A DNA stretch of 64,000 nucleotides, taken from NCBI GenBank assembly GCA_000091205.1, contig AP006494.2; one strand, 5' to 3'. The translations under genes were made by a program, and so were the position numbers. Of this stretch, positions 5,058 through 63,100 are shown in pieces. Below the pieces are notes generated by a model. The model was not told where the DNA came from. It saw only the letters and a program-made list of their open reading frames with translations, and made no database searches. Origin of the DNA: Cyanidioschyzon merolae (Eukaryota). Positions within the stretch are counted from its first letter, which is position 1, and each line of letters begins with the position of its first letter.

Positions 5058-5816
5058 TCATAGCGGAGGCTCGCTGGCTGCTGCTGTCGCCGATGCCGAT
5101 GTTGATGCCGATGCCTCATTCGAACCCAAGGCACAGTTGGTAGTCGCGGGCACCGACGCGCTATCCTGTCTGGCACCCGAGTTGCAGATCATCGCGTCCA
5201 GCTCCAGTAAGACGCCGTCCGCGTCATACACCTGGAACGGGCGATTGAAGGTGAAGCTGCAGCGATCTGAACCTGGTTCGTCTCCGTCGATATCGACTGC
5301 TGCATCCGGATCGGTGGCGATCAGCAGGAACGGCAGCCGAACAGCCGAATCGCCTTGTAGCGACGCGGAGCGCGGGCGCCCGCTGCTCGCCACCGCCGCA
5401 CCGCGCATATTGCGTTGGACAAGGCGCTCGAGCGCTCGTACAATTGTGCGGTATCGCTGGATCCGGCCGTCCTTGTCCCGCACACTCGAACTCAGACGGC
5501 TCAGTTCGTTCTCGAGGAGAGACTGCTCTCGTACGCTGGCGCGAGGTAGACCATGCCAGCGGACAGCGCGACGATCTTTGTGCACCACGCCGATAGCACA
5601 CAGCACATTCAGCGCATCGTAGACTCGACGGCGCACATTCTTCTCTTCACTCGCCGGATCACGCAACGCTACGCCATTGTTTCCCTGCAGCAGTTCGGCG
5701 ACCAGCTCATCCGCGACCTCATTGTAGGTGGTCTCGCCTTTCTGCTCGACTTTGTGGCAAATACGAACGGCAAAGTGACGGAGGCCTTTTTCCTCACGGG
5801 GCCGCCCGGACCTCAT
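5058..5816 (-). CDS. DP: Transcription factor DP (E2F dimerisation partner), DNA-binding winged-helix plus dimerisation region
   Basis: GLRHFAVRICHKVEQKGETTYNEVADELVAELL...KNVRRRVYDALNVLCAIGVVHKDRRAVRWHGLP aligns closely with the human TFDP1 DNA-binding domain. The listed ORF start at 6068 is GTG. The first in-frame ATG is at 5814-5816, checked as cat on the plus strand. Confidence 0.8.
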   Translation of the reverse strand: MRSGRPREEKGLRHFAVRICHKVEQKGETTYNEVADELVAELLQGNNGVALRDPASEEKNVRRRVYDALNVLCAIGVVHKDRRAVRWHGLPRASVREQSLLENELSRLSSSVRDKDGRIQRYRTIVRALERLVQRNMRGAAVASSGRPRSASLQGDSAVRLPFLLIATDPDAAVDIDGDEPGSDRCSFTFNRPFQVYDADGVLLELDAMICNSGARQDSASVPATTNCALGSNEASASTSASATAAASEPPL

Positions 5817-7142
5817 CCAAGAGCTGAACTCGGGAGCGCAGTATTCAGCGCGCCCGGAAAAAAATTGGTCGACACACAGACCACGAACGCTGCCTTGACA
5901 CCGGGAGCGTTGTGCACTCGTTTGTCGTCCCGTCACCCGCGTGATGTGCGGGTTCACGTTCGCTAGTGTCGACTCAAAGACCCGAGCTGGATACTGGATC
6001 CTGAAGTCTGGACAGCGTGTTGCGTCTGGTGCGGGGTCCTCGGTAGGTGCAACCTTGCGCGAGGTCACCGGTGACCACGTGCGCTGTCCTCGTCAGTTGC
6101 AGCAGGCCGATAGTCCTCGACTCTCCAGGTCCAGCTGGAATGGCGCAAACTACCGATGCTGGGAACTACGGAGTTCTCGTTCCACAAACTTGATGCCGAG
6201 TGTCTGCAAATTCCGGTACGTTGTCAGGCGGTACTCGAAGTCGTGCTCACTTCCGTGACGAGACTGCTGCACACAGGCGGCGTCACCAAGGTGCACGCCT
6301 GATGGAATTGTCTCGCGCGCTGCAGCACACTCACCTCAATAAACGTCTTGTTCCCCGTTCTGTGCTCAGCAGTTGATCAACGGAACGCCAGGTGTCGCCG
6401 ACCCTTCCCTTGCCCGTAGATGGAAACACCCGCTACAAGCGCCATCACAGGCGCGTGTTCGCAGATATTCCCTGATCATCGCTGAGAGCGCGCATCGGCA
6501 CGCGACGCCTCGGACTGGATTGCGCTTCCCGCGCAGTCGTCGAAAGCGGCGGCGGATGAGACGTGTGCCCGAATGGGTGCCGCGTGTGCCCGGCACCAGG
6601 GATGCGCAACGCGCGCCTGCACGGACTGGATCAGAGGCGGCTGGGGCACGGACGTGGACATCGGCCCTAACTGTACATTGTGGATCAAAAAGGTCAGCGT
6701 GCGTGCATGAGCATGGTGCGCGCTGTCCGAAAAGCGAGTCGCCCACAGGCGGATCAGAGAAGCGACAATGGCATCAAAGATCCAAACCGAACATAACTGT
6801 ATGTTGTAGGGCGAAACAGTCAGAGACCCTGATCGCTGTAGACACGACGATCTCACAGCAGCGATGGACGTCACGCGGCTGGTGCCAAGCGCCCGGACTG
6901 CCGATGCAGATGCGATCGCAGTCCGTCACGTGACAAACGCCCCGCATTCGGCCGCGCGTCGACGCTGACCCTTCTGGCATCGCTACACCTCAGAAGGGAC
7001 AGGTATTCCGCTCGAGTGCCGCTGTACGCTAGGTCCGAGTGTATTGCGAAGCGGATATCCGTTGAGCTTTAGGCGACCTGCACCACGACTCGCGTAACGA
7101 TTGCGTGACGTCCTGACCCAGTAAAGAGCAGGCGCGCTCGTC

Positions 7143-7889
7143 ATGACAGAGAAAGCGTCGAAGAGGCAGAGCATCGCCGAAGCGCTGTTCGAACGGCGCC
7201 CGAAAAACTTTGGGATTGGTCAGAGTATCCAACCAAAGCGCGATCTTTCACGTTTTGTGCGCTGGCCGCGTTATGTTCGCCTCCAGCGACAGCGGAAAAT
7301 CCTTCTTCAGAGGCTGAAGGTACCGCCGGCGATTGCCCAGTTCCAGAAAACTGCGGACAAGAACTTGACGGACTCGCTGTTCCGTCTACTAGAACGTTAC
7401 CGGCCTGAGGAGAAAGTCGCCAAGCGACAACGCTTACAACAAGCCGCGGAGCGTGGTGAGACGAAACCTGACACCCCCAAGCCTATTTTCGTGAAGCACG
7501 GCGTCAACCATGTAACCGACTTGATCGAACAGAAAAAAGCCAAGCTCGTGATCATCGCGCACGACGTCGATCCAATCGAATTGGTCATGTGGATGCCAGC
7601 ACTCTGCCGCAAACTCGACATCCCCTACGTCATCGTGAAGGGCAAGGCGCGTCTGGGCGCACTGGTGCACTTGAAAACGGCGACGTGTCTGGCCGTCACC
7701 GGTGTCCACGACAGAGACCGCGCGGAGCTCTCGAAAATCATCGAAGTGTGCAAAATGCGCTTTAATGACCGATACGAAGAGATTCGAAGGCAATGGGGTG
7801 GTGGTGTGCTCGGAATCAAAAGTACCCACAAGTTAGAGAAACGACGGCGGGCGCTAGCCATCGAGGAAGCGAAACGCGCCCAGGCGTGA
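7143..7889 (+). CDS. RPL7A: 60S ribosomal protein L7a (eL8)
   Basis: Full-length colinear match to eL8: FERRPKNFGIGQSIQPKRDLSRFVRWPRYVRLQRQR...LVIIAHDVDPIELVMWMPALCRKLDIPYVIVKGKARLG...NDRYEEIRRQWGG. ATG start, no interruption. Confidence 0.95.
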   Translation: MTEKASKRQSIAEALFERRPKNFGIGQSIQPKRDLSRFVRWPRYVRLQRQRKILLQRLKVPPAIAQFQKTADKNLTDSLFRLLERYRPEEKVAKRQRLQQAAERGETKPDTPKPIFVKHGVNHVTDLIEQKKAKLVIIAHDVDPIELVMWMPALCRKLDIPYVIVKGKARLGALVHLKTATCLAVTGVHDRDRAELSKIIEVCKMRFNDRYEEIRRQWGGGVLGIKSTHKLEKRRRALAIEEAKRAQA

Positions 7890-7893
7890 ACGC

Positions 7894-10800
7894 TTAGGAG
7901 GTCAGCGTTCCCGCGTGAACTCGATCGAAAAAGGATCCCAGATCCTCTGCCTGAATGCCGTCCGCATACAACACCAAATCCATGGTTAGTGAAGATGCTA
8001 TCGACGCTGGTGCGTGCGACTCTATGCGCATATAAACACCATCCAGTGTAAGGAGGAGGGGGCTAGGCGCATTAGCGGGACGCATGATGCCGACAGCGTA
8101 AAGCGTTTCTGTGAAAGGTTCTAAAGCCCGCAAAAGATCCATGAAAGCTGCCACATCGATTGGCATTGTTCGCTGGAGGTGGAGGCGGCGGAATAGCCTG
8201 CCTCTGTTCGCAGCCGCTGGACGGTGTGCATCGCCAGCAGGTGCAGCGTCCTGCATCGCCTGTGCGGTGAGGCGCGGCAGTACACGCGAATCGGCATCAT
8301 GAGTGGGAGCTGTTGTTGTTGTTGTTGTCGTCGTCGTCGTCGCTTCTGCTTCACGCAGCCAAGGTCGATTGCGCCTGCGTACCCAGATTGCTGCAGGCTG
8401 CAGCCGGCCGTAGGGTGCACATATCACCCTGGCGTGCGGATTCCATCCACAGACGTGTTCCAGGATTTGCTGCAAACGCTCCGCAGGTACAACGTCCGAC
8501 TTGGTAAATACGACTGTGTCCGCACTGGCGACAAGCTGCTGCTGGATATGGTCTTGCGACCGGAAACGGAGGCAATCCACCGCACACACAACAGCATCGA
8601 CGCCGTCAAGCGGCTCGTCCGTCTCTAGGGCTAAGCGGAACGGACGCGGGTGCGATTCGAGACGGCTAGCGAGCGCTGCCTCGCTGACAGCTTCCAGCCG
8701 CTGGCGTTGCAGCAGAGTGCTCGGGCCTGGTGGCTCAAGTCGCCACGCCAGCAGGTCCTCGTGGGCGTTCAGCGCTCCAACCAGCGAGGTTTTGCCCGCC
8801 CCTGGCAAGCCGCAGACTGCCAGAATACCCTCATTCGCGGGTAGTGGTTCAACATCTCCCGGAACAAGTATACGCTCGTTCTGTTCGCTGTTTGCTTCTG
8901 AACGCTTTGCTTCACCCGTGATGAGTATCCACGGCGGTGCGACTCGCGATGAAAGGCGCTCGACAAAAGAGGGCGGTTGAGCGGCTGGCGGGGTCTTTCC
9001 GCCGGCCCGTGTGCTGTCCGTGTTCGGTACTAGCGACTCGAAGGGGTCTTCAAACTCGCTCCAGGCTTCCGTAAAGACGAGCTCTTCGTCGCGTAGGAGA
9101 CATTCATCCAACACTATCTGAATCCGCATCGCATCCAGATCTTCCCCGAGAAACACGATTTCACTGCAGCGATCGCCAAAGCGCTCATCCCATTGCAGCG
9201 GTCGCATTCTATCTTGCGAGTTCGGGGCGCTTGGCCACTGTTCCAGCGGTAGGGTAACGAGAAATCTTTGCCCACGTTTCAGGGTTATATTGTTTCCGAC
9301 CTGGCTCCATTCGAGAAAACTGTCCATCCGATTTGCTAACCATAGTTTTCCGACAGAGCGCAAGACACCGTGGAAGGTGCTAATGTCACTGATCTTGTCA
9401 AATAGGCGACGCGGATGAAAAGGACGGTTCGCTCTGTAAAGAAAACTCGTCTCGGGTCGCACGGTTTCCGTGCTGAAGCCTCGCTCCCATGGTCGCGTTC
9501 CACTGTACAGCGTCGCGAGGAATTGCTCGTTGCTGAACCGCGAGTCCCAAATAGGTCGCGCGGTACCTGCTGCTGACGACACCGCAGGAGCAGCGGGGTG
9601 CGTGGCACTGCCTCCGGTCGCTGCTCCGGGGCCCTTGGGTGCCGCTGCCTTTCCCGGATCATAACCTGCATCGGGTGCGGAGGCAGCGCCCCAGGATGCG
9701 GTGGCAGCTGTCGTCTCCTGTGACGCTGACGCCGCTGACGTCTCGGGTACCGTCGCTCTGGTGGCTGGCGTTGCAGCCGCTGTTGACGTGCCTACAGATG
9801 GTCCAGCCTTTGCTGAACTTTTTCCCGTACTCTGTGCTCTGTTCTCTGGCAATGCGGAACCGTATTTCTGGGAAGTTTTCGTCAGTTCCGTCGCAGCGAA
9901 AGAAGCAAGAACCCGGCGCCAGGTCGGCATCCAGAGCATCCGCTCCGGATCAAACGGTCGCTCGAGAATGCGCTCCAGGAGTGTTTGTGGCCATTCAGTA
10001 TTCGCGTGCATGAGAATCACCTGAGCCTCGCAGTTCAAGAGTCGAAGATAACGAAGTAGGTTCTGGAAAGAGGGCGTCGGGGCTGTACGGACCTCGGGAT
10101 CAGGACTTGCGTCCTGCGACTTGCGCATCGGCCGCACGTCCGCATCTGTCTCCCGACCAGGCATTTGTTGTTGGTTGTACACGACGACAAGGTTCGCATA
10201 CTCTATTTGATCCACCAGGAGCTGCACCAAATTATCAGCCTGTGCGTTACTTGCTGATCCCCGTTCCCGCTCCATAGCGGGTGGCCGTCGTGCTGACGCT
10301 CCATCGTTGTCGCCTGCACCTACATCTCCAGCTTCCACGCGCGATGCAGTTTTCTTCTCGTGCAGCAGCGTACCTCGGGATGGACTTGAGCCGTCCCGCG
10401 AAGTCTCCACGGTATCGCTCGTCGCGAGCGCTTGGTCAGCGTCGTTGTGGCTGATTTCCAGTCCAGTCCCGCCAGTTATACCCGTCGCTGTCGTTGGGAT
10501 GCGTTCCGAAGCCGGCGACGTCTGCGCTGTATTCTCAGGGCTATACGCGACAGACGCCGTTTCTTGTTGTCGCAGCGTCGGTGCGAATACCTCCGCAGCC
10601 GCCGCTGCATCGATGACGCTCACGAGCGCAAGAAGCTGCAGCGGCCACTCAACATGCGCAAGACTGTCGGCGATGGCATATGGCTCCTCTTTTTCAGGGC
10701 TGCAGACGATGAGGTAGTCCACACCGTACGCTGCCTGGACCTGAAACAGATTCACAGGGCTGGGTGCAGCTTCCACTGTTTGATCCGCAGCGCTCTGTAC

Positions 10801-50831: not shown

Positions 50832-52490
50832 TCACAGACGCAGTCTCTTTAGGGGTTCCGCGCGCTTCCGCGGTCCACTGCGGAAATTCCTGGCGATACG
50901 CTTCCGCTTGGGACGCTTTTCGACTGGCTTATTCAACTCTTCTGGACCTGCTGGTCTCAGGTCATCCGTCGCGGACTGAGCATTCGCCATTTCGGGAGCC
51001 AGCACCTGCCATAATCCATCATCTTTCAGCATATAATCGGGAATGTGCCCCAGATGTGCCGCCAGCCGCTTCCGCACCAGCGGACGATCATGGCTGAGCA
51101 CTTCCAAATCCACCCGATCGCCTTGGCGGGCAGCCAGCAGAGCATCCCGGAAAGCCCGCGAGCGAAGCATCTCATCGCGAAGAGCCTGGACGCGTGCTTC
51201 CCGTACAGCCAGGTCTGTGCAGGCACAGAGTGCATCTTCGACTCGGTAACGAAATGTTTCCATCGTTTCCTTTCGAACTGCCAAAAGGCGGGGCTGCCCT
51301 TGCATCGACAACCGGGCATGCTCCGTAAAAAATCGTTCTATTCGCTGAGATTCATCGTCGTTGGTTACGAGCGTGACCACTTTGCCCGCACGGCCCGCTC
51401 TTCCGGTTCGTCCAGAGCGATGCAAGAAAACTTCGATATTCTTGGGCGCGGTAAAGTGGATCACCACATCCACCGATCGAAAATCAAGACCACGCGACGC
51501 TGAGTAGCCAGTCGATTTCAACGTTGTCGCTTCATCCGATGTTACGAGAATGTCGAATATACCAGCGTCGAACTGCTGAAGGCAATGCTGGCGCGACGTG
51601 ACCGGCAAGTCTGCATTCAGCACCGCGCATCGGATCCCAAAGCGATCCAGAAAGAGCTTCACGCGATAGGCCTCAAGCACGCTGTCTACGAACACGAGAA
51701 TGCGATCCCGCAGAATGCGTAATCGAAGAACCACGTAGAGCCATGCGAAGCGTTCATCCAGACCAGATAATCGACTGACCCAGTACTGTACATTGCTTTT
51801 GTTGCCAGAGGGGTCTGCATCCCAGCTGGCCTCTATGCGACAGGCTTCTGGTTGATGCAGTGCCAAAGCACGCAGCGCTTCTACCTCCTCGTCCAGTGTG
51901 GCGCTTAGCAACACACCTTGAGCATTTGTCGGTATTTTTCTTACAACGTCGTGGACTTGAGTGGCGCTCGACGCAAACGACAAGACGAGGTCAGCTTCAT
52001 CGATTACCAGCAGCACGACATTCCTTGCCCGCTCTGTGGTTAGGGATTGCGCAAGTCCAGCTGGCGTTCCTACGCAGACACTCGCATCCGTCCAGGTATC
52101 GATTAGGGCCTTGTTGCTGAAGGCTCCGGTTACCACACAGCAGTGCAGCGGCAGGTTTTCCGTTAGTGACACAAAAGTTCGACCAAGTTGCAGCGCCAGA
52201 TCTTGGCTGGGCACCAGCACGATCGCGCGAGTGCTTTCGCACCAGGCGCCTCTCGCGTTCTCCTCGTCGTAGATCTGCAACAGTAGGTGAACCAATGGCA
52301 GTGCATAGGCCCCAGTTTTACCCGATCCAGTGGGAGCATTCACTAGAACGTCTTTCCCGGAAAGCACGGCGGGAATCACGGCTTCCTGTACGGGTGCTGG
52401 TGTACGCCAGCGCAGTTTGCGTAGAACGGCTTCCACCACACGCGCGTCGAGCCCCAGCTGTGGGAACGTGCGGGTCCGGGAACAACCCAT
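50832..52490 (-). CDS. DEAD-box ATP-dependent RNA helicase (DDX56/Dbp9-like)
   Basis: Motif Q and motif I (APTGSGKT), VIDEADLV (DEAD), SAT, and HRSGRTGRAGRAG (motif VI). The listed start 52502 is GTG; the first ATG is 52488-52490. Confidence 0.9.
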   Translation of the reverse strand: MGCSRTRTFPQLGLDARVVEAVLRKLRWRTPAPVQEAVIPAVLSGKDVLVNAPTGSGKTGAYALPLVHLLLQIYDEENARGAWCESTRAIVLVPSQDLALQLGRTFVSLTENLPLHCCVVTGAFSNKALIDTWTDASVCVGTPAGLAQSLTTERARNVVLLVIDEADLVLSFASSATQVHDVVRKIPTNAQGVLLSATLDEEVEALRALALHQPEACRIEASWDADPSGNKSNVQYWVSRLSGLDERFAWLYVVLRLRILRDRILVFVDSVLEAYRVKLFLDRFGIRCAVLNADLPVTSRQHCLQQFDAGIFDILVTSDEATTLKSTGYSASRGLDFRSVDVVIHFTAPKNIEVFLHRSGRTGRAGRAGKVVTLVTNDDESQRIERFFTEHARLSMQGQPRLLAVRKETMETFRYRVEDALCACTDLAVREARVQALRDEMLRSRAFRDALLAARQGDRVDLEVLSHDRPLVRKRLAAHLGHIPDYMLKDDGLWQVLAPEMANAQSATDDLRPAGPEELNKPVEKRPKRKRIARNFRSGPRKRAEPLKRLRL

Positions 52491-52501
52491 AATCGCCGAC
52501 A

Positions 52502-55000
52502 CCGAACACTTTCCAAAAGTCGAACGACGCCAGCGGTGTACAGTAGTGGCGAGAAGCCCGCTCTGGACAAGAAGTCTTCAGCTGAGGTGCAGACGCCTCC
52601 CCGTCTTTACGGACCGGCCACCCACCACTGATTCCAATGTTTTCTCATATAGTTCCATTTTGAGTGATTGTCCAATAAAGTTCACTCTTGTCTACTCTGG
52701 AGGTCTCGTCTCCAGCACCGCACATTTCCTTATATTGATAGCGGCATTAAAGTCTCTGTTCACAAACTCCATATGTTTCGTGCCATCACTGGTTGTACTC
52801 ACTAGTGCAAGTAGCCATCGAACTTTCGCTCTCCCTTCCATTTGCTCTTCCGTCAGCGCTCCGTACTTTTGTATATCTTCAGGACTCGTCTGGCACTTTT
52901 CCATCTCCAGTCTCTCTGAAGTGTACAACCCAGTTCATGGTGTGTATAGGACGTTCGAAACTCATCTGTCGGTATCGTAACAAAACGCCTTGCGCACGCC
53001 TTGTACGTTCTTGTCGTTGGAGCTGGCGTAGTCCCTTTTTAGGTCATCCATCGCCCTGGTCCGTACGCTACTACGAGCCTCTGACCCTCATCCCTATTCG
53101 CGGCGCTCAGCTGATTGAAAAAATTGGCGAATGCACGCTGCTTCCCACAACAAAGATTCATTCGCAAATGAGCCCACCGAGGCTTTGTATACTCCTCCCA
53201 CGGCGCATTCCAATGGGCAACACGAACTTCCATGAATTTCCGAAAAGCTTCAAAGTCGGCTCCTCGGCTGGTCACCTCGCTCAAAGCCCCAAGGTGATCC
53301 TTCATTCCTGAATTCCAAGACTCGATTTTCTTCCTCGCATTCATTATACAGGACTCTCGATAGTGTCTCGCTCCCGAGAGCCTCAACAGACGCATGTCTT
53401 TCTGACGCAAGTTACCATCAGTACCATTTTCCGCACGCTTCGGTGCTGCGATGGTAATGATATTCGTATTCCCAGGGTCCGCGCCAACGACAAAGTCGTT
53501 ATCCTGCACTTTCTGCATCGCAGGATCCGCCTCCTTCTTTTCTTCCTTTTTCACCGCGTCAAAGACAAGGTCGTCATCCTGCACTTTCTGTGTGGCAGGA
53601 TCCGCCACCTTGTTTTCTTCATGCTTCGCCGAGGGCAATATCGAAGACGGACCAGGACAATCTGTCTTCAACCGCCAGTAGTGTACACACTTGGATACCC
53701 CATCGGTTTTGATCAACCCAGTGGATATCTTTTGTTTGCTCACTTTGAGACGTTTGAAATCGAAGACGTTCTTCCAGTACGTCTCCCGCTTGTCACCGGT
53801 GAACTCTGTCTTCCATACATCAAACTCCGGACAGATCTCCTTCAAGATGCCGTAAAGGACGCCGGAATCGATGCTCACAAAATGTGACCGGATGTTGCAG
53901 ATTGGAACCACGTTGAAGCGCTTCCCCATTAGGACAGCCTTCCGACTCTCCCATTCATCACTTTTTCCTCACTCGGCTATATCTCCGCTTTGCATTCGAG
54001 TTCTCGGTCCAGGAACACGAAATAGCGCAGAATGAGGCGGTAGTGTCTTTCCTTACCTTTTTCAACTCTGATACCTTGTCTATTGGATTCGCCAGCCCCA
54101 AGACTGCAAGATGCTCTTTAATAGCCGCACGGATGACGGAATCCTCATTTGTGCTCCTGCGTGACGCCTTCTTGTCGACAAAGTCGATCTCATCTTCATG
54201 CTTGCGATCGTTCGTGATGCCATTGAAAATCGCCCATATCCCTTTGCCAGAGATACCAGGGTGAGTGCAAACACGGGGCGTATCATGAAACGTTCACGGT
54301 TCATAGTCGAATGGTTCTTCGGATTTGTGAGGCATTTCATGGCCCCATAGAAGCAAATACCCCAGTCACCCATGTATCGAGTACCGTCAAAGCGGAATTC
54401 GCGTAATTCCAGTGGAGGGCGTTCATGTGCTCATTTCTCCTTGACTTCTCCCCTGCGCCCAGCACCAGGTGGCGGATAAAGCTCCTGTTGAAAAACTCGT
54501 CCGCGACCTCGACTGTTTTGATGTCCGTCACGTCGCGATACATCTCTCTCGCTGAATGCATCAATCCTGACGACGACTTGACAATAATCTTGGAGTACGA
54601 GCCAACACGTTTTTGATAGCGTCTCGCAACTTTTCCCCGTAGGGATCCTTGATATGTCCAAGAAGGAAGGTTTTCACCACCATCTCGTTGTACAGGCGTC
54701 TTTCTTGCCGCCTTCGACGTAGGGCCTCCCCCTTTCGGTTCTTCTTCTCTTCCTTTTCTTCTGGACTCGGCACTGTTTTTTGTTTTTTTCTAGCAGCCGG
54801 CGACAGTGGGCCTCCAGGATCGTCGACTTGTTTTTTCATAACTTTTCTTTTATTAGTTTTTTCGAAAAAGAACGCTCTTTGAACGCTTCTGTTATATACT
54901 GCGAACAAACACATGAATACACTTGTTTGAGGTTTAAAAACACAAATGAACTGAGTAACTGTACTTTGCTACGACCCGAACGGAAATCCAACCTTTATAG
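52502..55000 (-). mobile_element. Copy 1 of an element of about 2.4 kb encoding a TnpB/Fanzor-like RuvC nuclease. The left boundary is approximate. The right, 3' end abuts the helicase start codon.
   Basis: It is homologous along its whole length to the copy at 60681-63100, at roughly 65-90% identity by eye. The 3' 190 bp after the nuclease stop, and the RuvC-III coding block, are the most conserved parts. Confidence 0.6.
52692..54839 (-). pseudogene. Fanzor/TnpB-like (OrfB_IS605 superfamily) RNA-guided-nuclease homologue. N-terminal basic NLS-like tract, Ruv[12 protein letters not shown], a degenerate RuvC-II/zinc-ribbon region, and RuvC-III NRDFNAAINI. Disrupted by at least 2 frameshifts and 1 in-frame stop.
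   Basis: N-terminus MKKQVDDPGGPLSPAARKKQKTVPSPEEKEEKKNRKGEALRRRRQERR, with the ATG at 54837-54839. Segment [19 protein letters not shown] matches the TnpB RuvC-I pattern VGIDLGITN. RTYKACARRFVTIPTDEFRTSYTH matches the YKA...V.P..TSQ.C linker, with the Cys residues lost. The C-terminus reads KHMEFVNRDFNAAINIRKCAV*. The consecutive ORF segments 54561-54839, 54337-54564, 54080-54373, 53039-53929 and 52692-52928 lie in shifting frames. Confidence 0.65.
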
Positions 55001-55170
55001 CTAAACAGCACGCTATTCATCAGGATCACGTTTCGCTTCAACAAAGGCACCGAGCGCGCCGTGACCCATGCCTGGCAGACCTCCCCGGTTCGCTCACCGA
55101 GCACGACGCGCTTTTGAGGCCTGGAGTGTGCTGGTGGCTACTGCCTGGCACTCCCGCTTTTGCACATTGG

Positions 55171-56547
55171 ATGAATGATGCGGAAGGACGCGTATATGGT
55201 GCCGATGCAACGCGGTTACCGTTCGTCAAGTCGCGGAGGACGTGCGACGTACTCGGCGGCTGCAGCCAAACGAGGCTACCAGTTACTTTCTCCTTTCCAT
55301 CAACAGGATGTCTACATTCGGGTACGTACTCTGGGGGAAAGACGATTACGCGCTCAAAATGTGGTATAAAGTTTCTAGAGTGCCCTAGTGAACTCCATTT
55401 GGGAGCCTACCACGTGGGGATGTTTGTTCGCGGGCAACGCTCTTGGAAAGTGCACGCTCCGCAACAGCAACGGGAGCAGAGCGTTATAGCTGCTTTCGTG
55501 CAGGGTGCCAGAACGTCGGCTGAGCATGCTTCCTCTGCAGAAAGCACATGTTTGCGTGTCCGACAAGGAAGACGGCTCGCGCACAGCGTCGAGAGGAGCA
55601 GCGATAGCGTCGACAGCAGGCTAGTCGTAGACCAGTCGCCGCTGTGGCGTGCAAGTGAGCTCCAGAGCGGCTCTAAGCCGCCGCCGCGACGGCCCGGCAG
55701 CTGCTGGACCTGCCTGGCTGAGCCTCCACCAGAGCCGGACTTCGGAGGTTGGGGGCATTTATCGCGCAGTCTAGCCCAAGTGCGCGTTTATGTCAGCGGA
55801 CTAGAGTCACTACGCGCTCTCGTGAGCAGAGCCGACCCATCAGGTCTCCCGCTGAGAGCACGACGCAATGCTCTGAGGCGCTCTCAATACCCTGGTCGAC
55901 CGTATCGTCTGCACGAACATCCGAAGGTTACCGACTGGCTCGCTGCAATCACGATTCTGTCCTTTCTTCTGCAGCTGTGGGCCGGTCCCGCATATGTCAT
56001 GGCTGGCGCCAAAGTGAATGCTGCGATTCGCACCGGAGAATGGTATCGCCTCTTTACACCACTCTTTCTGCACGGAAACACCTTGCACCTCATCGTGAAC
56101 CTGTCTTCACTCAAAAGTCTCGGACCGCAAATCGAGGCAACTTATGGGCACAGACGTTATGCAGCGCTGTACTTGCTCAGCGGGCTCACAGGCAACTTGT
56201 TCTCGTTTTTCTTCAACACAGCACCATCTGTTGGCGCAAGCAGTGCCATATTCGGCTTAATAGGTGCGATGGCAGCCTTCTATGTATCGAATACGGACTG
56301 GTTTGGACGAGAGCACAGCCATCGCGTCCTGCGCAACATTGCGTGGGTGACATTGTTGAACCTTGGACAGGGCCTTGCTCCAGCGAGTCGTATCGACAAT
56401 TTTGGTCACCTGGGGGGCCTTCTCGGCGGAGCAGTCTTTGGCGTGCTCTTTGGACCTCGACTCTATCTGGATCCGAAGGGACGGCTTGTCGATATTCCCC
56501 TCGCGCAAGGATGGTTGCAGCGATTGCGCCGCAGGCGTTATCGATAA
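55171..56547 (+). CDS. Rhomboid-family intramembrane serine protease. The catalytic core is in the C-terminal ~210 aa; the N-terminal extension and the start are uncertain.
   Basis: WYRLFTPLFLHGNTLHLIVNLSSL, GxSx motif GASSAIFGLIGAM, and catalytic-His region FGHLGGLLGG. The listed start 55114 is TTG; the first ATG is 55171. Confidence 0.7.
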   Translation: MNDAEGRVYGADATRLPFVKSRRTCDVLGGCSQTRLPVTFSFPSTGCLHSGTYSGGKTITRSKCGIKFLECPSELHLGAYHVGMFVRGQRSWKVHAPQQQREQSVIAAFVQGARTSAEHASSAESTCLRVRQGRRLAHSVERSSDSVDSRLVVDQSPLWRASELQSGSKPPPRRPGSCWTCLAEPPPEPDFGGWGHLSRSLAQVRVYVSGLESLRALVSRADPSGLPLRARRNALRRSQYPGRPYRLHEHPKVTDWLAAITILSFLLQLWAGPAYVMAGAKVNAAIRTGEWYRLFTPLFLHGNTLHLIVNLSSLKSLGPQIEATYGHRRYAALYLLSGLTGNLFSFFFNTAPSVGASSAIFGLIGAMAAFYVSNTDWFGREHSHRVLRNIAWVTLLNLGQGLAPASRIDNFGHLGGLLGGAVFGVLFGPRLYLDPKGRLVDIPLAQGWLQRLRRRRYR

Positions 56548-60680: not shown

Positions 60681-63100
60681 CCGAACACCTTAAAAGTTAA
60701 ACGAGGCTGCAGTCGGCAGTACAGAAGTGGCTAAAGCCACCGAAACAAATTGTTCGCTGGCGAGGTGCAGACACCTCCCGGTCTTTTTTGGCCAGCGACC
60801 CACTCTAGCTTCCAATTTCGTTCCATATATGCTAGCCTTGACTCATTATGGGAAAAAAATCCTTCTTGTCCACTCTGCATTTCTGTTCTCCAGCACCGCA
60901 CATCTCCTTATATTGATAGCGGCGTAAAATCTCTGTTCACAAACTCCATCCGTTTCTTGTCATCATTCATTGAACAAACTAATGCAAGTAGGCCTCGGAC
61001 TTTCGCCCTCTTTTCCATTTGCTCTTCCGTCAGCGGTCCATACTTTGCTATATCTTCCGGAATCCGCAGGCAGTGTCCTATCTCGACCCGCAGGAGTCGA
61101 GATGGAAAACTCGTGGGGTGTATGGACCTTCGAGACACACGTAAAGGTATCGTCACGAAACGCCGTGCACACTCATTGTACGTTCTTGTCGTTGGGGCTG
61201 GCGTAGTCCCTTTTTTTTTCGGAACCCATCTCCATGCTCCGTATGCTACTACGGGCCTCTGACAGTCGTTCTTCTTCTAGGTGCTGAACTCTTCGAGAAA
61301 ATTCGTGAACGCCCACTGCCTACCACAGTACAGCCTCACACGCAAACGAGCCCACCGGGGATTTGGATACATTTCCACAGTTCCACCTAATGAGCAACGC
61401 GAACATACCATAAATTTCCGAATAGCTTCAAACCCGGCTCTGCGGCTCGTCACCTCGATCGTAGCTTTCCGATGCTATTTCATCCTGCACTCCATGTCTC
61501 GAATTCATCATCGTATTCAAGATTCCCGCTTCTCCGTAGTATCTCGCTTTCGAGAACGTAAAAAGATGCATGCCTTTCTGACGTAAGTTGCCGTCAGTGT
61601 CAACATCCCCATGCTTGGGTACTACGATGGTTATGATATTCGTGTTCCAGGCATTAAGGCCGACGAAAAAGTCGTTTTCGTGGATATTATAAGTCCCATG
61701 GCCCGCCTTCTCCTTCTCGTGCTTCGACAAGGGGATACCGAAAACGGGATAGGACGACCTGCCTGCAAACGCGGATGGTGTACACATATGTCGCCATCAT
61801 TGTAACCGATTGTCCAAGTGAGAACCATGTTTTGGCCAGTTTGAGACGCTTAAAATCGAAGATATTCTTCCATTAGGTGTCCCGGTCGTCGTCGGTGACA
61901 TCTTTGTTGCTTACATCGAGCTCTGGCGAGATCTCTTTCATGAAGGCGTTAAGGACTCTGGAGTCGATACTCACAAAATATGACTTGAACTCGCATCACC
62001 AAACGGCAATAAAGCGCATCAAGAGAAGCAATTCAACGTCGTTTCTCCGACGGTCATTTTTTCCTCAGCTCCATTTCGGCCATGCCTTCGAGTTCTCTGC
62101 GCAAAATCATGAAGTAGTGCAGAATGGGGTGATAAAATCTCTCTTCGTTTTCTCTGACATCTGAGAATTTTTCACTTGGGTTGACGAGCCCCAAGCGTTA
62201 GCGATGCTTCTGAATAGTCGCGCGGAATACTGAAGCCTCATCATATCTGCAGCGTGATTTCGTCTTTTCTACAAATCTGATCTGCTGTTCATGCTGGCGA
62301 CATTTCTAGTCCGCATAGATGATTGCCGAAATCCCTTCAGGAAACAGGCCCGGGTACAGCGCAAAGACGGCCCGTATTACACAACATCCGAGGTATGCGT
62401 TCTTATGGTTCCTCGGATTCGGGAGGCACCTCATGGCCCTGTATTCGTAAATATTAGCGTCATCCCTGTGTCCAGCACCATTGGTGCGGTATTTGACGTA
62501 ATTATTGAGAAAGGCATGCATTCGGTCATTTCTCCTCGATGTTTCCCATCGCAAACAATCAGGTGGTAAATGAAAGTCGTTTTGAAAAATTCATCAAGGA
62601 AACATCATTTTTGCCATGTGCGTTACGCCGCGATGCAGCTCGTTCTCAAAAGGCGTCGGTCCTAAAGAAAAGTAGCAAACATACGTGGCGCACGAATCGA
62701 CACTGTTTCTGTTAGCGCCACGCAACATTCAGTCGTACGGACCATTGATATGTTGGAAAAGAGGGGATTCCGCCACCATCCCGTCGTACACACGCCATTC
62801 GTGCAGCCATCGACGAAAGGCCTCCCCGATTAGCTTGTACTTCTTTTCTTGATCGTCTTCGCTAGGCACTGTTTGTTGTTTTCTTCCAACAATTGGCAGC
62901 ACCGTTAATCCTCAACCCTTTATTTCCACATGAAAATGTCTACTTTTTTTTTGGGGAAACCACATTGAACGCCTCTGCGTTGAGCGGCGAACATCAGTTG
63001 AATACCCCTACTTGAGGTTTGAATCACGACAGAAGCCAAAACTATACATTGCGACGATTTGATTGCAAGTATAGCTGGCCCCGATAGAGCAATAGCTCCA
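60681..63100 (-). mobile_element. Copy 2 of the Fanzor/TnpB-like element, more degenerate than copy 1. The RuvC-I Asp is replaced (FVGLNAWNTNIITIV) and there is a 1-nt deletion in RuvC-III (MEFVNRDFTPLSI*).
   Basis: ORF fragments at 60908-61156, 61428-61787 and 62306-62554 are homologous to copy-1 segments. AMRCLPNPRNHKNAYLG matches copy-1 AMKCLTNPKNHSTMN. The N-terminal region and the 3' non-coding region are also conserved with copy 1. It lies about 170 bp upstream of the BVMO ATG, in the same orientation. Confidence 0.55.

Follow-up and report, generated by a model that had tools for sequence, protein, structure and literature searches.

In the 64,000-nucleotide stretch of Cyanidioschyzon merolae DNA analysed here (contig AP006494.2, assembly GCA_000091205.1; hereafter the window), a segment of 190 bp at positions 52502-52692, next to the start of a DEAD-box helicase gene, had been flagged in an earlier reading of the sequence (the original prediction) as the conserved non-coding 3' end of a Fanzor-like element and a candidate omegaRNA region. 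We find that this segment is best explained as the right end of a dead Fanzor1 transposon related to the CMe-1A family, in which 52691-52566 would be a C-terminal remnant of the nuclease, shortened by two Trp-to-stop mutations, and 52562-52505 would be the non-coding tail. In well-preserved members of the family, the last ~120 nt most likely specify an omegaRNA scaffold that ends in a 10-bp hairpin followed by GCGUU; transcription would run outward across the right end, with the first ~20 nt of the flank as the guide. A directional insertion bias, or a survival bias, for the 5' edges of genes is the most likely cause of the adjacency to the helicase. Taken as a whole, this account (a dead Fanzor1 right end, a candidate scaffold in its intact kin and a family bias to gene 5' edges) is in our judgement fairly probable. 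The flagged segment alone is an ordinary relic of a known transposon type (Fanzor1, CMe-1A-like), and the unusual finding, the directional clustering of the family's right ends on host start codons, lies outside its coordinates.

The window holds two copies of the element. Copy 1 (52505-55110, minus strand) is a short or 5'-truncated CMe-1A-like Fanzor1 element, delimited by alignment with copy 2 and by homology with 80 comparison loci, and three-frame translation revealed multiple frameshifts and stop codons in its open reading frame (ORF). Copy 2 (60684-63023, minus strand) is also decayed and its 5' limit is uncertain; its tail occupies 60684-60801, and its right end at 60684 lies 175 nt upstream of the ATG (60508) of a BVMO gene in the same orientation, in agreement with the placement given in the original prediction. 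The 80 loci were taken from 479 candidate stretches returned by a metagenome scan, of which at least 396 encode relatives of the element and come from the same hot-spring metagenomes. Alignments and counts for the family are based on 48 non-redundant genomic copies, and adjacency counts on 40 independent loci.

Identification of the nuclease as Fanzor1

Since searches of the nuclease against Pfam and PDB with single sequences and with a shallow profile gave no significant match, a deeper profile was needed. The sole Pfam signal was a sub-threshold one to Cas12f1-like_TNB, and an AlphaFold2 model built from a 20-sequence alignment had a mean predicted local distance difference test (pLDDT) score of 33, too low for use. 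A profile search of 1.8 billion representative proteins returned 1,496 relatives of the nuclease, 49 of which were aligned (alignment A5); this 49-member profile takes in three proteins of the window element's own family (P0004, P0006 and P0008). When compared with PDB, the profile matched the solved Fanzor1 chains from Parasitella parasitica (9cf0, E = 4.2e-19), Spizellomyces punctatus (SpuFz1, 8gkh, E = 9.3e-12) and Guillardia theta (GtFz1, 9cer, E = 8.1e-6). The RuvC D/E/D residues were invariant in all 49 sequences, at D484 of GxDPG, E656 of DEFRT and D725 of RDxNAAxNI, and copy 1 still shows all three motifs (GADPG, DEFRTS and RDFNAAINI) within its disrupted ORF. The last of these, RuvC-III at 52731-52757 on the minus strand, carries the invariant Asp and falls within the match to the solved Fanzor1 chains. 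These profile matches bear out the designation "Fanzor-like" and support the assignment of the element, by sequence relationship, to the Fanzor1-carrying transposons.

Former coding sequence behind the apparent stop codon

The original prediction took the segment, downstream of the nuclease stop codon, to be non-coding. We found instead that this apparent stop, a TAG at 52692-52694 (minus strand), arose by nonsense mutation of a Trp codon that is hypervariable in the family. The codon reads TGG in copy 2, and across the 48 copies it is TGG in 13, TTG in 8, TAG in 8, TCG in 4 and other triplets in the rest. Intact homologues read through the equivalent position for ~43 further codons ('...RPPEWTRENFVGQPLKVELYKKKLEAVVGGRSKKTGRRLHVSWRRFV*'), and of the 186 proteins found in a homologue search with the conceptually repaired C-terminal half of the nuclease, several cover 100% of the query, reading '...NAAINIRRCAVLETRPPEWTRENFVGQPLKVELYKKKLEAVVGGRSKKTGRRLHVSWRRFV*'. 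In most of the 48 copies the frame stays open as far as a common TAG, the family consensus stop at 52563-52565 (minus strand), which is CAG in copy 1; copy 1 is interrupted once more, by a TGA at 52578-52580. An extension of ~20-25 residues past the motif RPxxLxR is present in relatives at ~30% identity as well, with which the first ~22 residues after the motif are shared. Because intact homologues read through, most copies share the downstream stop and even these distant relatives extend past RPxxLxR, the 42 codons at 52566-52691 (minus strand) are, on comparison of sequences, former coding sequence, and only 52562-52505 is non-coding. The segment is thus made up of about two thirds ex-coding sequence and one third degenerate right-end tail, and an apparent conserved 3' untranslated region (UTR) may, as here, be a coding region shortened by a nonsense mutation. 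A stop at exactly the codon equivalent to 52692-52694 recurs in both subfamilies of the element while the frame downstream stays open, and the solved Fanzor1 proteins finish a few residues past the equivalent RPxxFSR motif.

The homology between the two copies, on which the claim of a conserved block had been built, is real: over the 3' region they align with blastn E = 3e-45, far above chance, and remain alignable past the copy-1 stop. There is, however, no special conservation, as the copies are 60.1% identical over 52502-52692 versus 68.8% over the ORF. Within the former coding part, column entropy in the family revealed codon periodicity over 52691-52624 that is gone over 52623-52566. Entropy at the three codon positions was 0.62/0.60/0.68 bits in the last 20 codons, compared to 0.43/0.40/0.84 bits upstream, and the variability of the third codon position is therefore suppressed in the last ~20 codons. 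This loss of periodicity fits an overlapping constraint at the nucleotide level.

The former coding sequence also contains a TATA-like (C/T)TATAT motif, CTATATGAGAAA, at 52641-52652 (minus strand). It is retained in 45 of the 48 copies despite the rarity of Leu CTA/TTA and Tyr TAT codons in host genes, and it lies ~25-30 nt upstream of the structured segment described below and ~145 nt upstream of the right end. It may act as the TATA box of an internal transcript.

The right end of the family and a candidate omegaRNA scaffold

Homology across the 48 copies stops sharply at the position equivalent to 52505 ('...TCGACTTTCGAACGGCGTT|'), where column entropy rises from ~1.0 to 1.84 bits. Entropy was ~0.5 bits in the ORF, 0.63 bits in its last 20 codons, 0.76-1.02 bits in the tail and 1.84 bits in the flank. 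The right end reads ...GGCGTT, and the ~12 nt past 52505 hold a weak motif (0.3-0.7 bits per position), so that the element may reach ~52494. No terminal inverted repeats (TIRs) were detected in the family, nor did three full-length copies show an inverted repeat joining the 5' terminus and the 3' subterminal region, and no target-site duplication (TSD) or target-adjacent motif (TAM) was definable, the 5' boundaries and left junctions varying by subfamily. The non-coding tail of copy 1 is 58 nt long (52505-52562, minus strand) and holds a degenerate terminal hairpin at ~52505-52530, for which the family consensus, written as DNA, is CGTCGTTCGA-CTT-TCGAACGGCG.

A predicted structured RNA of the family, the candidate omegaRNA scaffold, maps to the 119-nt segment at 52505-52623 (minus strand), which consists of the last ~20 codons and the 58-nt tail, ends at the family homology boundary and is decayed in copy 1. 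When RNAalifold was applied to the whole 212-column 3' alignment it returned no useful structure, and the copies had to be split by subfamily. Folded independently, the two subfamilies gave similar helices in the last ~120 nt: an outer GGUG/CACC helix, a CCGGUC/GACNGG hairpin, a helix of 9-12 bp (GAGGCGUCU/AGACNUNUC), a GGGCG/CGCC hairpin just after the stop codon, and the terminal hairpin. Of the sequence-by-pair cells, ~85% were paired, compared to 35-58% when the partners were slid. The terminal hairpin is the best-supported structural element; in consensus-like copies it has 10 bp and stops 2-5 nt short of the right end. Its sequence comes in two versions whose registers differ, CGUCGUUCGA-CUU-UCGAACGGCG (z = -4.3 versus shuffles) and AACGUUUUUC-UUUU-GAAAGGCGUU (z = -2.5), both scored on subfamily consensus sequences, and the copy at locus L019 has a compensated G-C to U-A variant (z = -3.4).

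In the window, by contrast with these copies, neither copy retains the terminal hairpin (copy 1, -1.9 kcal/mol, z = +1.2; copy 2, -1.8 kcal/mol, z = +0.8), and the 119-nt tails are no more stably folded than shuffled sequences (z = +0.71 for copy 1 and -0.16 for copy 2). Because both the ORF and the terminal hairpin have decayed, neither window copy is a working guide-RNA gene any longer, and both are relics. For the family, an omegaRNA is a plausible reading of position and structure. The omegaRNAs of known Fanzor1 and TnpB systems are encoded at the element's 3' end, in some cases across the end of the ORF, and the 3' flank supplies the guide (Saito 2023, PMC10432273). Since the 3' anatomy of the family matches this arrangement, an omegaRNA would be a reasonable expectation for intact relatives. 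The proposal of a candidate omegaRNA region is plausible for the family and its shared fold, while its premise of a conserved non-coding block was wrong and the window copies have lost their hairpins.

The junction with the DEAD-box helicase gene

The gene beside copy 1 encodes a DDX56/DBP9-type DEAD-box helicase (50832-52490, minus strand; Pfam DEAD and Helicase_C) that starts at ATG 52490. Orthologues of 552-553 aa that are 100%, 74% and 70% identical all begin at the equivalent of this ATG (aligned N-termini MGCSRTRTFPQLGLDARV, MGASKATAFKRFGLDARV and MSPSRTASFARFGLDARV), which rules out GTG 52502 as the start. In the homologue search, the near-identical and the 70-74% identical orthologues were found only in hot-spring metagenome and Logan assemblies, and the nearest named relative was from Cyanidium caldarium, at 52% identity. 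Between the right end at 52505 and the two codons there are 2 nt (GTG 52502) and 14 nt (ATG 52490), or 3 nt in the case of the ATG if the weak flank motif is part of the element, and the claim that homology runs to within 0-12 bp of the helicase start was thus borne out, with the distance now measured to a verified ATG. The 14-nt spacer, CGGTGTCGGCGATT (52491-52504, minus strand), would be the start of the guide segment.

The same insertion was present in another sample at 98.6% identity (L081). In two sister species, the divergent rhomboid-helicase gene pair is kept, with element-free spacers of 540 and 576 bp (L083:5461-6000; L085:3000-3575), and no copy of the element was found on the sister-species contigs (L083, L084 and L085; ~26 kb; helicase 70%/74% identical). 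In the window, the rhomboid protease gene (55171-56547, plus strand) is divergent from the helicase, its ATG and the left end of copy 1 being ~60 nt apart, so that only ~60 + 14 nt of DNA between the two start codons is not of element origin. It follows from this geometry that whatever drives transcription of the helicase must lie inside the element, and that the 5' leader and proximal promoter of the helicase would fall within it. The original prediction had held the helicase 5' UTR and promoter to be derived from the element; the contrast of a 14-nt gap with an element-free spacer of 540-576 bp in the sisters supports this geometrically, and a promoter function is what the geometry would imply. 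In L085, the helicase is closely followed by the BVMO gene in the opposite orientation, an arrangement unlike that of the window.

Right ends of the family often lie close to host start codons

We compared the position of right ends relative to genes with that of random intergenic positions and orientations on the same contigs, element copies being masked. A downstream gene was counted when it was a co-oriented ORF of at least 195 aa, and its distance was measured to the first ATG beyond the right end. Such an ATG was found at <=320 nt in 25 of the 40 loci, at <=120 nt in 17 and at <=40 nt in 9, compared to 7.7%, 3.2% and 1.2%, respectively, of the random positions, an 8- to 18-fold excess over chance. 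The nine closest ATGs lie 1, 3, 7, 14, 14, 18, 32, 38 and 39 nt beyond the right end, and the closest loci are that of window copy 1 (spacer at 52491-52504), L030, L069, L003, L050, L071, L076, L054 and L064. Right ends face gene heads in 25 cases and the 3' end of an opposite-strand gene in 8. The downstream ORFs are unrelated housekeeping genes, among them those for glycerol-3-phosphate dehydrogenase, a WD40 protein, a COPI-associated protein, KTI12, an M18 aminopeptidase, a methyltransferase and eIF5B. Starts were verified for the gene of the COPI-associated protein and for that of KTI12, 14 nt beyond the right end, whose ATG is genuine since the Pfam profile begins at residue 1. Left ends showed no proximity to gene starts, their distances being ~250-750 nt after allowing for 5' modules.

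As a pattern, a preference for the 5' ends of genes has strong support, with 25 of 40 loci compared to 7.7% at random, and the position of copy 1, 14 nt (or 3 nt) upstream of the helicase start, is explained by the family as a whole being found just upstream of, and co-oriented with, host genes. Target choice, orientation-dependent survival and promoter donation are all candidate causes. If the adjacency holds in the complete genome, the family would offer a natural system for how Fanzor elements choose, or survive at, their target sites, and it would also bear on whether read-out transcription of guide RNAs drives host genes.

Alternative explanations

Several results weigh against the account that we favour. 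By column entropy, the tail varies more than the ORF among the family copies, and the right end is placed only to within 12 nt. The covariation score of the shared fold was reached by 43 of 500 shuffles with 20 sequences and by 9 of 500 with 35, which is within the false-positive range of the method; sliding the partners by +3 gave a similar score, and the covariation term of RNAalifold was ~0. Covariation in the family is marginal, and by the calibration of the method such scores can occur in sequence that is under no structural constraint. Folding of the whole tail in good copies gave mixed z values (-3.2, -2.95, -0.5 and +0.16). A search of 52300-55300 against Rfam 15 returned no match at E <= 1, although this has little weight, as whether Rfam models Fanzor omegaRNAs is not established, and the terminal hairpin may just as well be a signal for transposition at the DNA level. 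As for the adjacency, the gene calls in the control were crude and ORF-based, and the "first ATG" rule may understate true distances at loci without verified starts. Finally, the identity of the tail to the consensus was 0.806 in gene-adjacent copies and 0.806 in other copies (p = 1.0). Given this equal conservation, recruitment under selection, or domestication as a promoter, receives no support from this comparison.

It is conceivable, if rather doubtful, that the hairpin and tail serve as a DNA-level transposition signal, either a subterminal hairpin of the Helitron or IS200/IS605 type, recognised by a transposase supplied in trans, or a terminator of the rolling-circle kind. The lack of TIRs, as for CMe-1A (Bao & Jurka), a stable hairpin so close to the right end, and 5' ends that are variable or truncated, together with a solo 95-nt 3' fragment that recalls the 3' overabundance of CRe-1,2,3, would all fit such a signal, and the retention of the hairpin in two sequence versions fits DNA as well as RNA. 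However, the right end is without a Helitron1 CTRR terminus, an asymmetric terminal inverted repeat was not found, and neither Rep/Hel nor a Y1 transposase turned up in the loci that were inspected; moreover, a right-end hairpin and an omegaRNA coexist in IS200/IS605 elements, so an RNA role stays compatible with a DNA signal, which would by itself leave the structure potential and the loss of codon periodicity ~60 nt into the ORF unexplained. We are similarly hesitant about domestication, that is, that the 3' end of the element was recruited as promoter and 5' leader of the helicase and of many other host genes, and that right ends were retained for this reason. The short distance to the verified helicase ATG, where the sister species have a long spacer, the equally tight geometry at KTI12 (14 nt) and at the gene of the COPI-associated protein, the co-orientation bias towards gene heads and the retention of the TATA-like motif in nearly all copies speak for recruitment, but the gene-adjacent tails are no better conserved than the others, the hairpin beside the helicase has simply decayed, and a leader that ends in a 10-bp GC-rich hairpin makes a poor 5' UTR.

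A still less probable explanation is that nothing here is functional, the similarity reflecting shared ancestry under neutral transposon decay and the proximity to the helicase being due to chance at one site of a compact genome. The two window copies themselves agree with this view, as they are 60% identical here versus 69% in the ORF and have tails that fold no better than shuffles, and so does a family covariation that is not significant; the view leaves unexplained, however, the sharp right-end boundary that the copies share, a hairpin in two versions with z down to -4.3, and the 8- to 18-fold excess of co-oriented gene starts over 40 loci. The account of a dead right end in a family biased to gene 5' edges could be carried further, in that the right end would be an outward transcription unit for a guide RNA, the family would have directionally colonised sites before dozens of housekeeping start codons, the DBP9 helicase, KTI12, eIF5B and the M18 aminopeptidase would be expressed from element-derived promoters or leaders, and the guides would be the 5' edges of genes. 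We consider this extension unlikely; if true, it would mean that a selfish RNA-guided nuclease is coupled to host gene expression and that loss of the element is costly.

Comparison with known systems

CMe-1A is a Fanzor1 family of C. merolae with ~150 copies of ~3 kb that are ~80% identical to their consensus, no TIRs, undetermined TSDs, variable 5' modules and a 5' portion of 635 bp in common with another repeat (Bao & Jurka 2013, PMC3627910). The family studied here, matched to CMe-1A by description only, shares with it a cyanidiophycean red algal host, a single Fanzor1 ORF, many ~80%-identical copies without TIRs, elements of ~2.6-4 kb, a modular 5' part shared with other repeats and a few copies with intact ORFs. 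The published description of CMe-1A is silent on a 3' RNA, on a terminal hairpin and on position relative to host genes. SpuFz1 and GtFz1 (Saito et al. 2023, PMC10432273) belong to the same nuclease family by the profile matches given above (E = 9.3e-12 and 8.1e-6); their structured 3' segment can overlap the end of the ORF (17 aa in GtFz1 versus the ~20 codons proposed here), and the guide is expected from the 3' flank. In the present family the omegaRNA is predicted only, and its protein has a ~40-residue C-terminal extension past RPxxLxR that SpuFz1 and PpFz1 do not have. No Rfam match (Rfam 15, 52300-55300) or sequence similarity was found between known omegaRNAs and the candidate scaffold, of which the family supplies ~50 diverged natural copies from a thermoacidophilic alga.

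The non-autonomous Helitron2-type elements CRe-1,2,3 of Chlamydomonas (Bao & Jurka 2013, PMC3627910) resemble the family in their Fanzor1 cargo, 3' subterminal hairpin, intact 3' ends, variable or truncated 5' ends and lack of classic TIRs. Unlike in CRe-1,2,3, we detected neither asymmetric TIRs nor Helitron termini (5'-TC...CTRR-3'), saw no RepHel partner in the loci examined, and did not observe a target preference after T-rich tetranucleotides. In the bacterial IS200/IS605 elements that carry TnpB (for example, ISDra2), the scaffold likewise extends over the 3' part of the nuclease gene and the region of a right-end hairpin, with the guide just outside the right end; these elements differ in their Y1 TnpA transposase and in a defined TAM at the left end, neither of which was identified here.

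Element architecture and further features of the window

Copies of the family diverge by ~20%. At least three unrelated, subfamily-specific 5' modules (~560-640 nt, ~570 nt and >1,600 nt) precede the common core, and by their 5' modules loci group as L029/L061/L075, L054/L031/L041 and L012/L044/L050/L017. Copy 1 carries none of these modules, its left limit being at ~55110. The occurrence of different 5' modules before a common core echoes the relationship of CMe-1A and TE-N2_CMe in C. merolae. A solo fragment of 95 nt that corresponds to the terminal part of the tail only was found in two loci (L061:1294-1388 and L018:370-464); in L061 it lies upstream of two full head-to-tail copies (L061:2113-4632 and 5680-8493).

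Among the flanks, four loci of the v2 subfamily have ~20 nt of similar sequence beyond the nominal right end (TGTTGTCGCTGCCGTCGTCC). In L075/L076, the 22 nt right after the right end are 82% complementary to the element's own ORF (L075:6967-6988 versus 8274-8295); this complementarity was not reproduced in other copies and was judged likely to be due to chance. A scan for sigma-70 promoters and terminators was set aside as not meaningful for eukaryotic DNA.

Besides the helicase and BVMO genes, the window carries genes for a fused type II topoisomerase, a tocopherol cyclase, a Ulp1 protease and the rhomboid protease; ORFs are long and intron-free, and G+C content is 48-60%. Within the Fanzor1 ORF of copy 1, just upstream of RuvC-I, there is a 75-nt tandem repeat at 53479-53620 (1.9 copies, 86% match) that encodes a 25-residue unit, the copy number of which ranges from ~1 to at least 5 among homologues (P0008 versus P0001).

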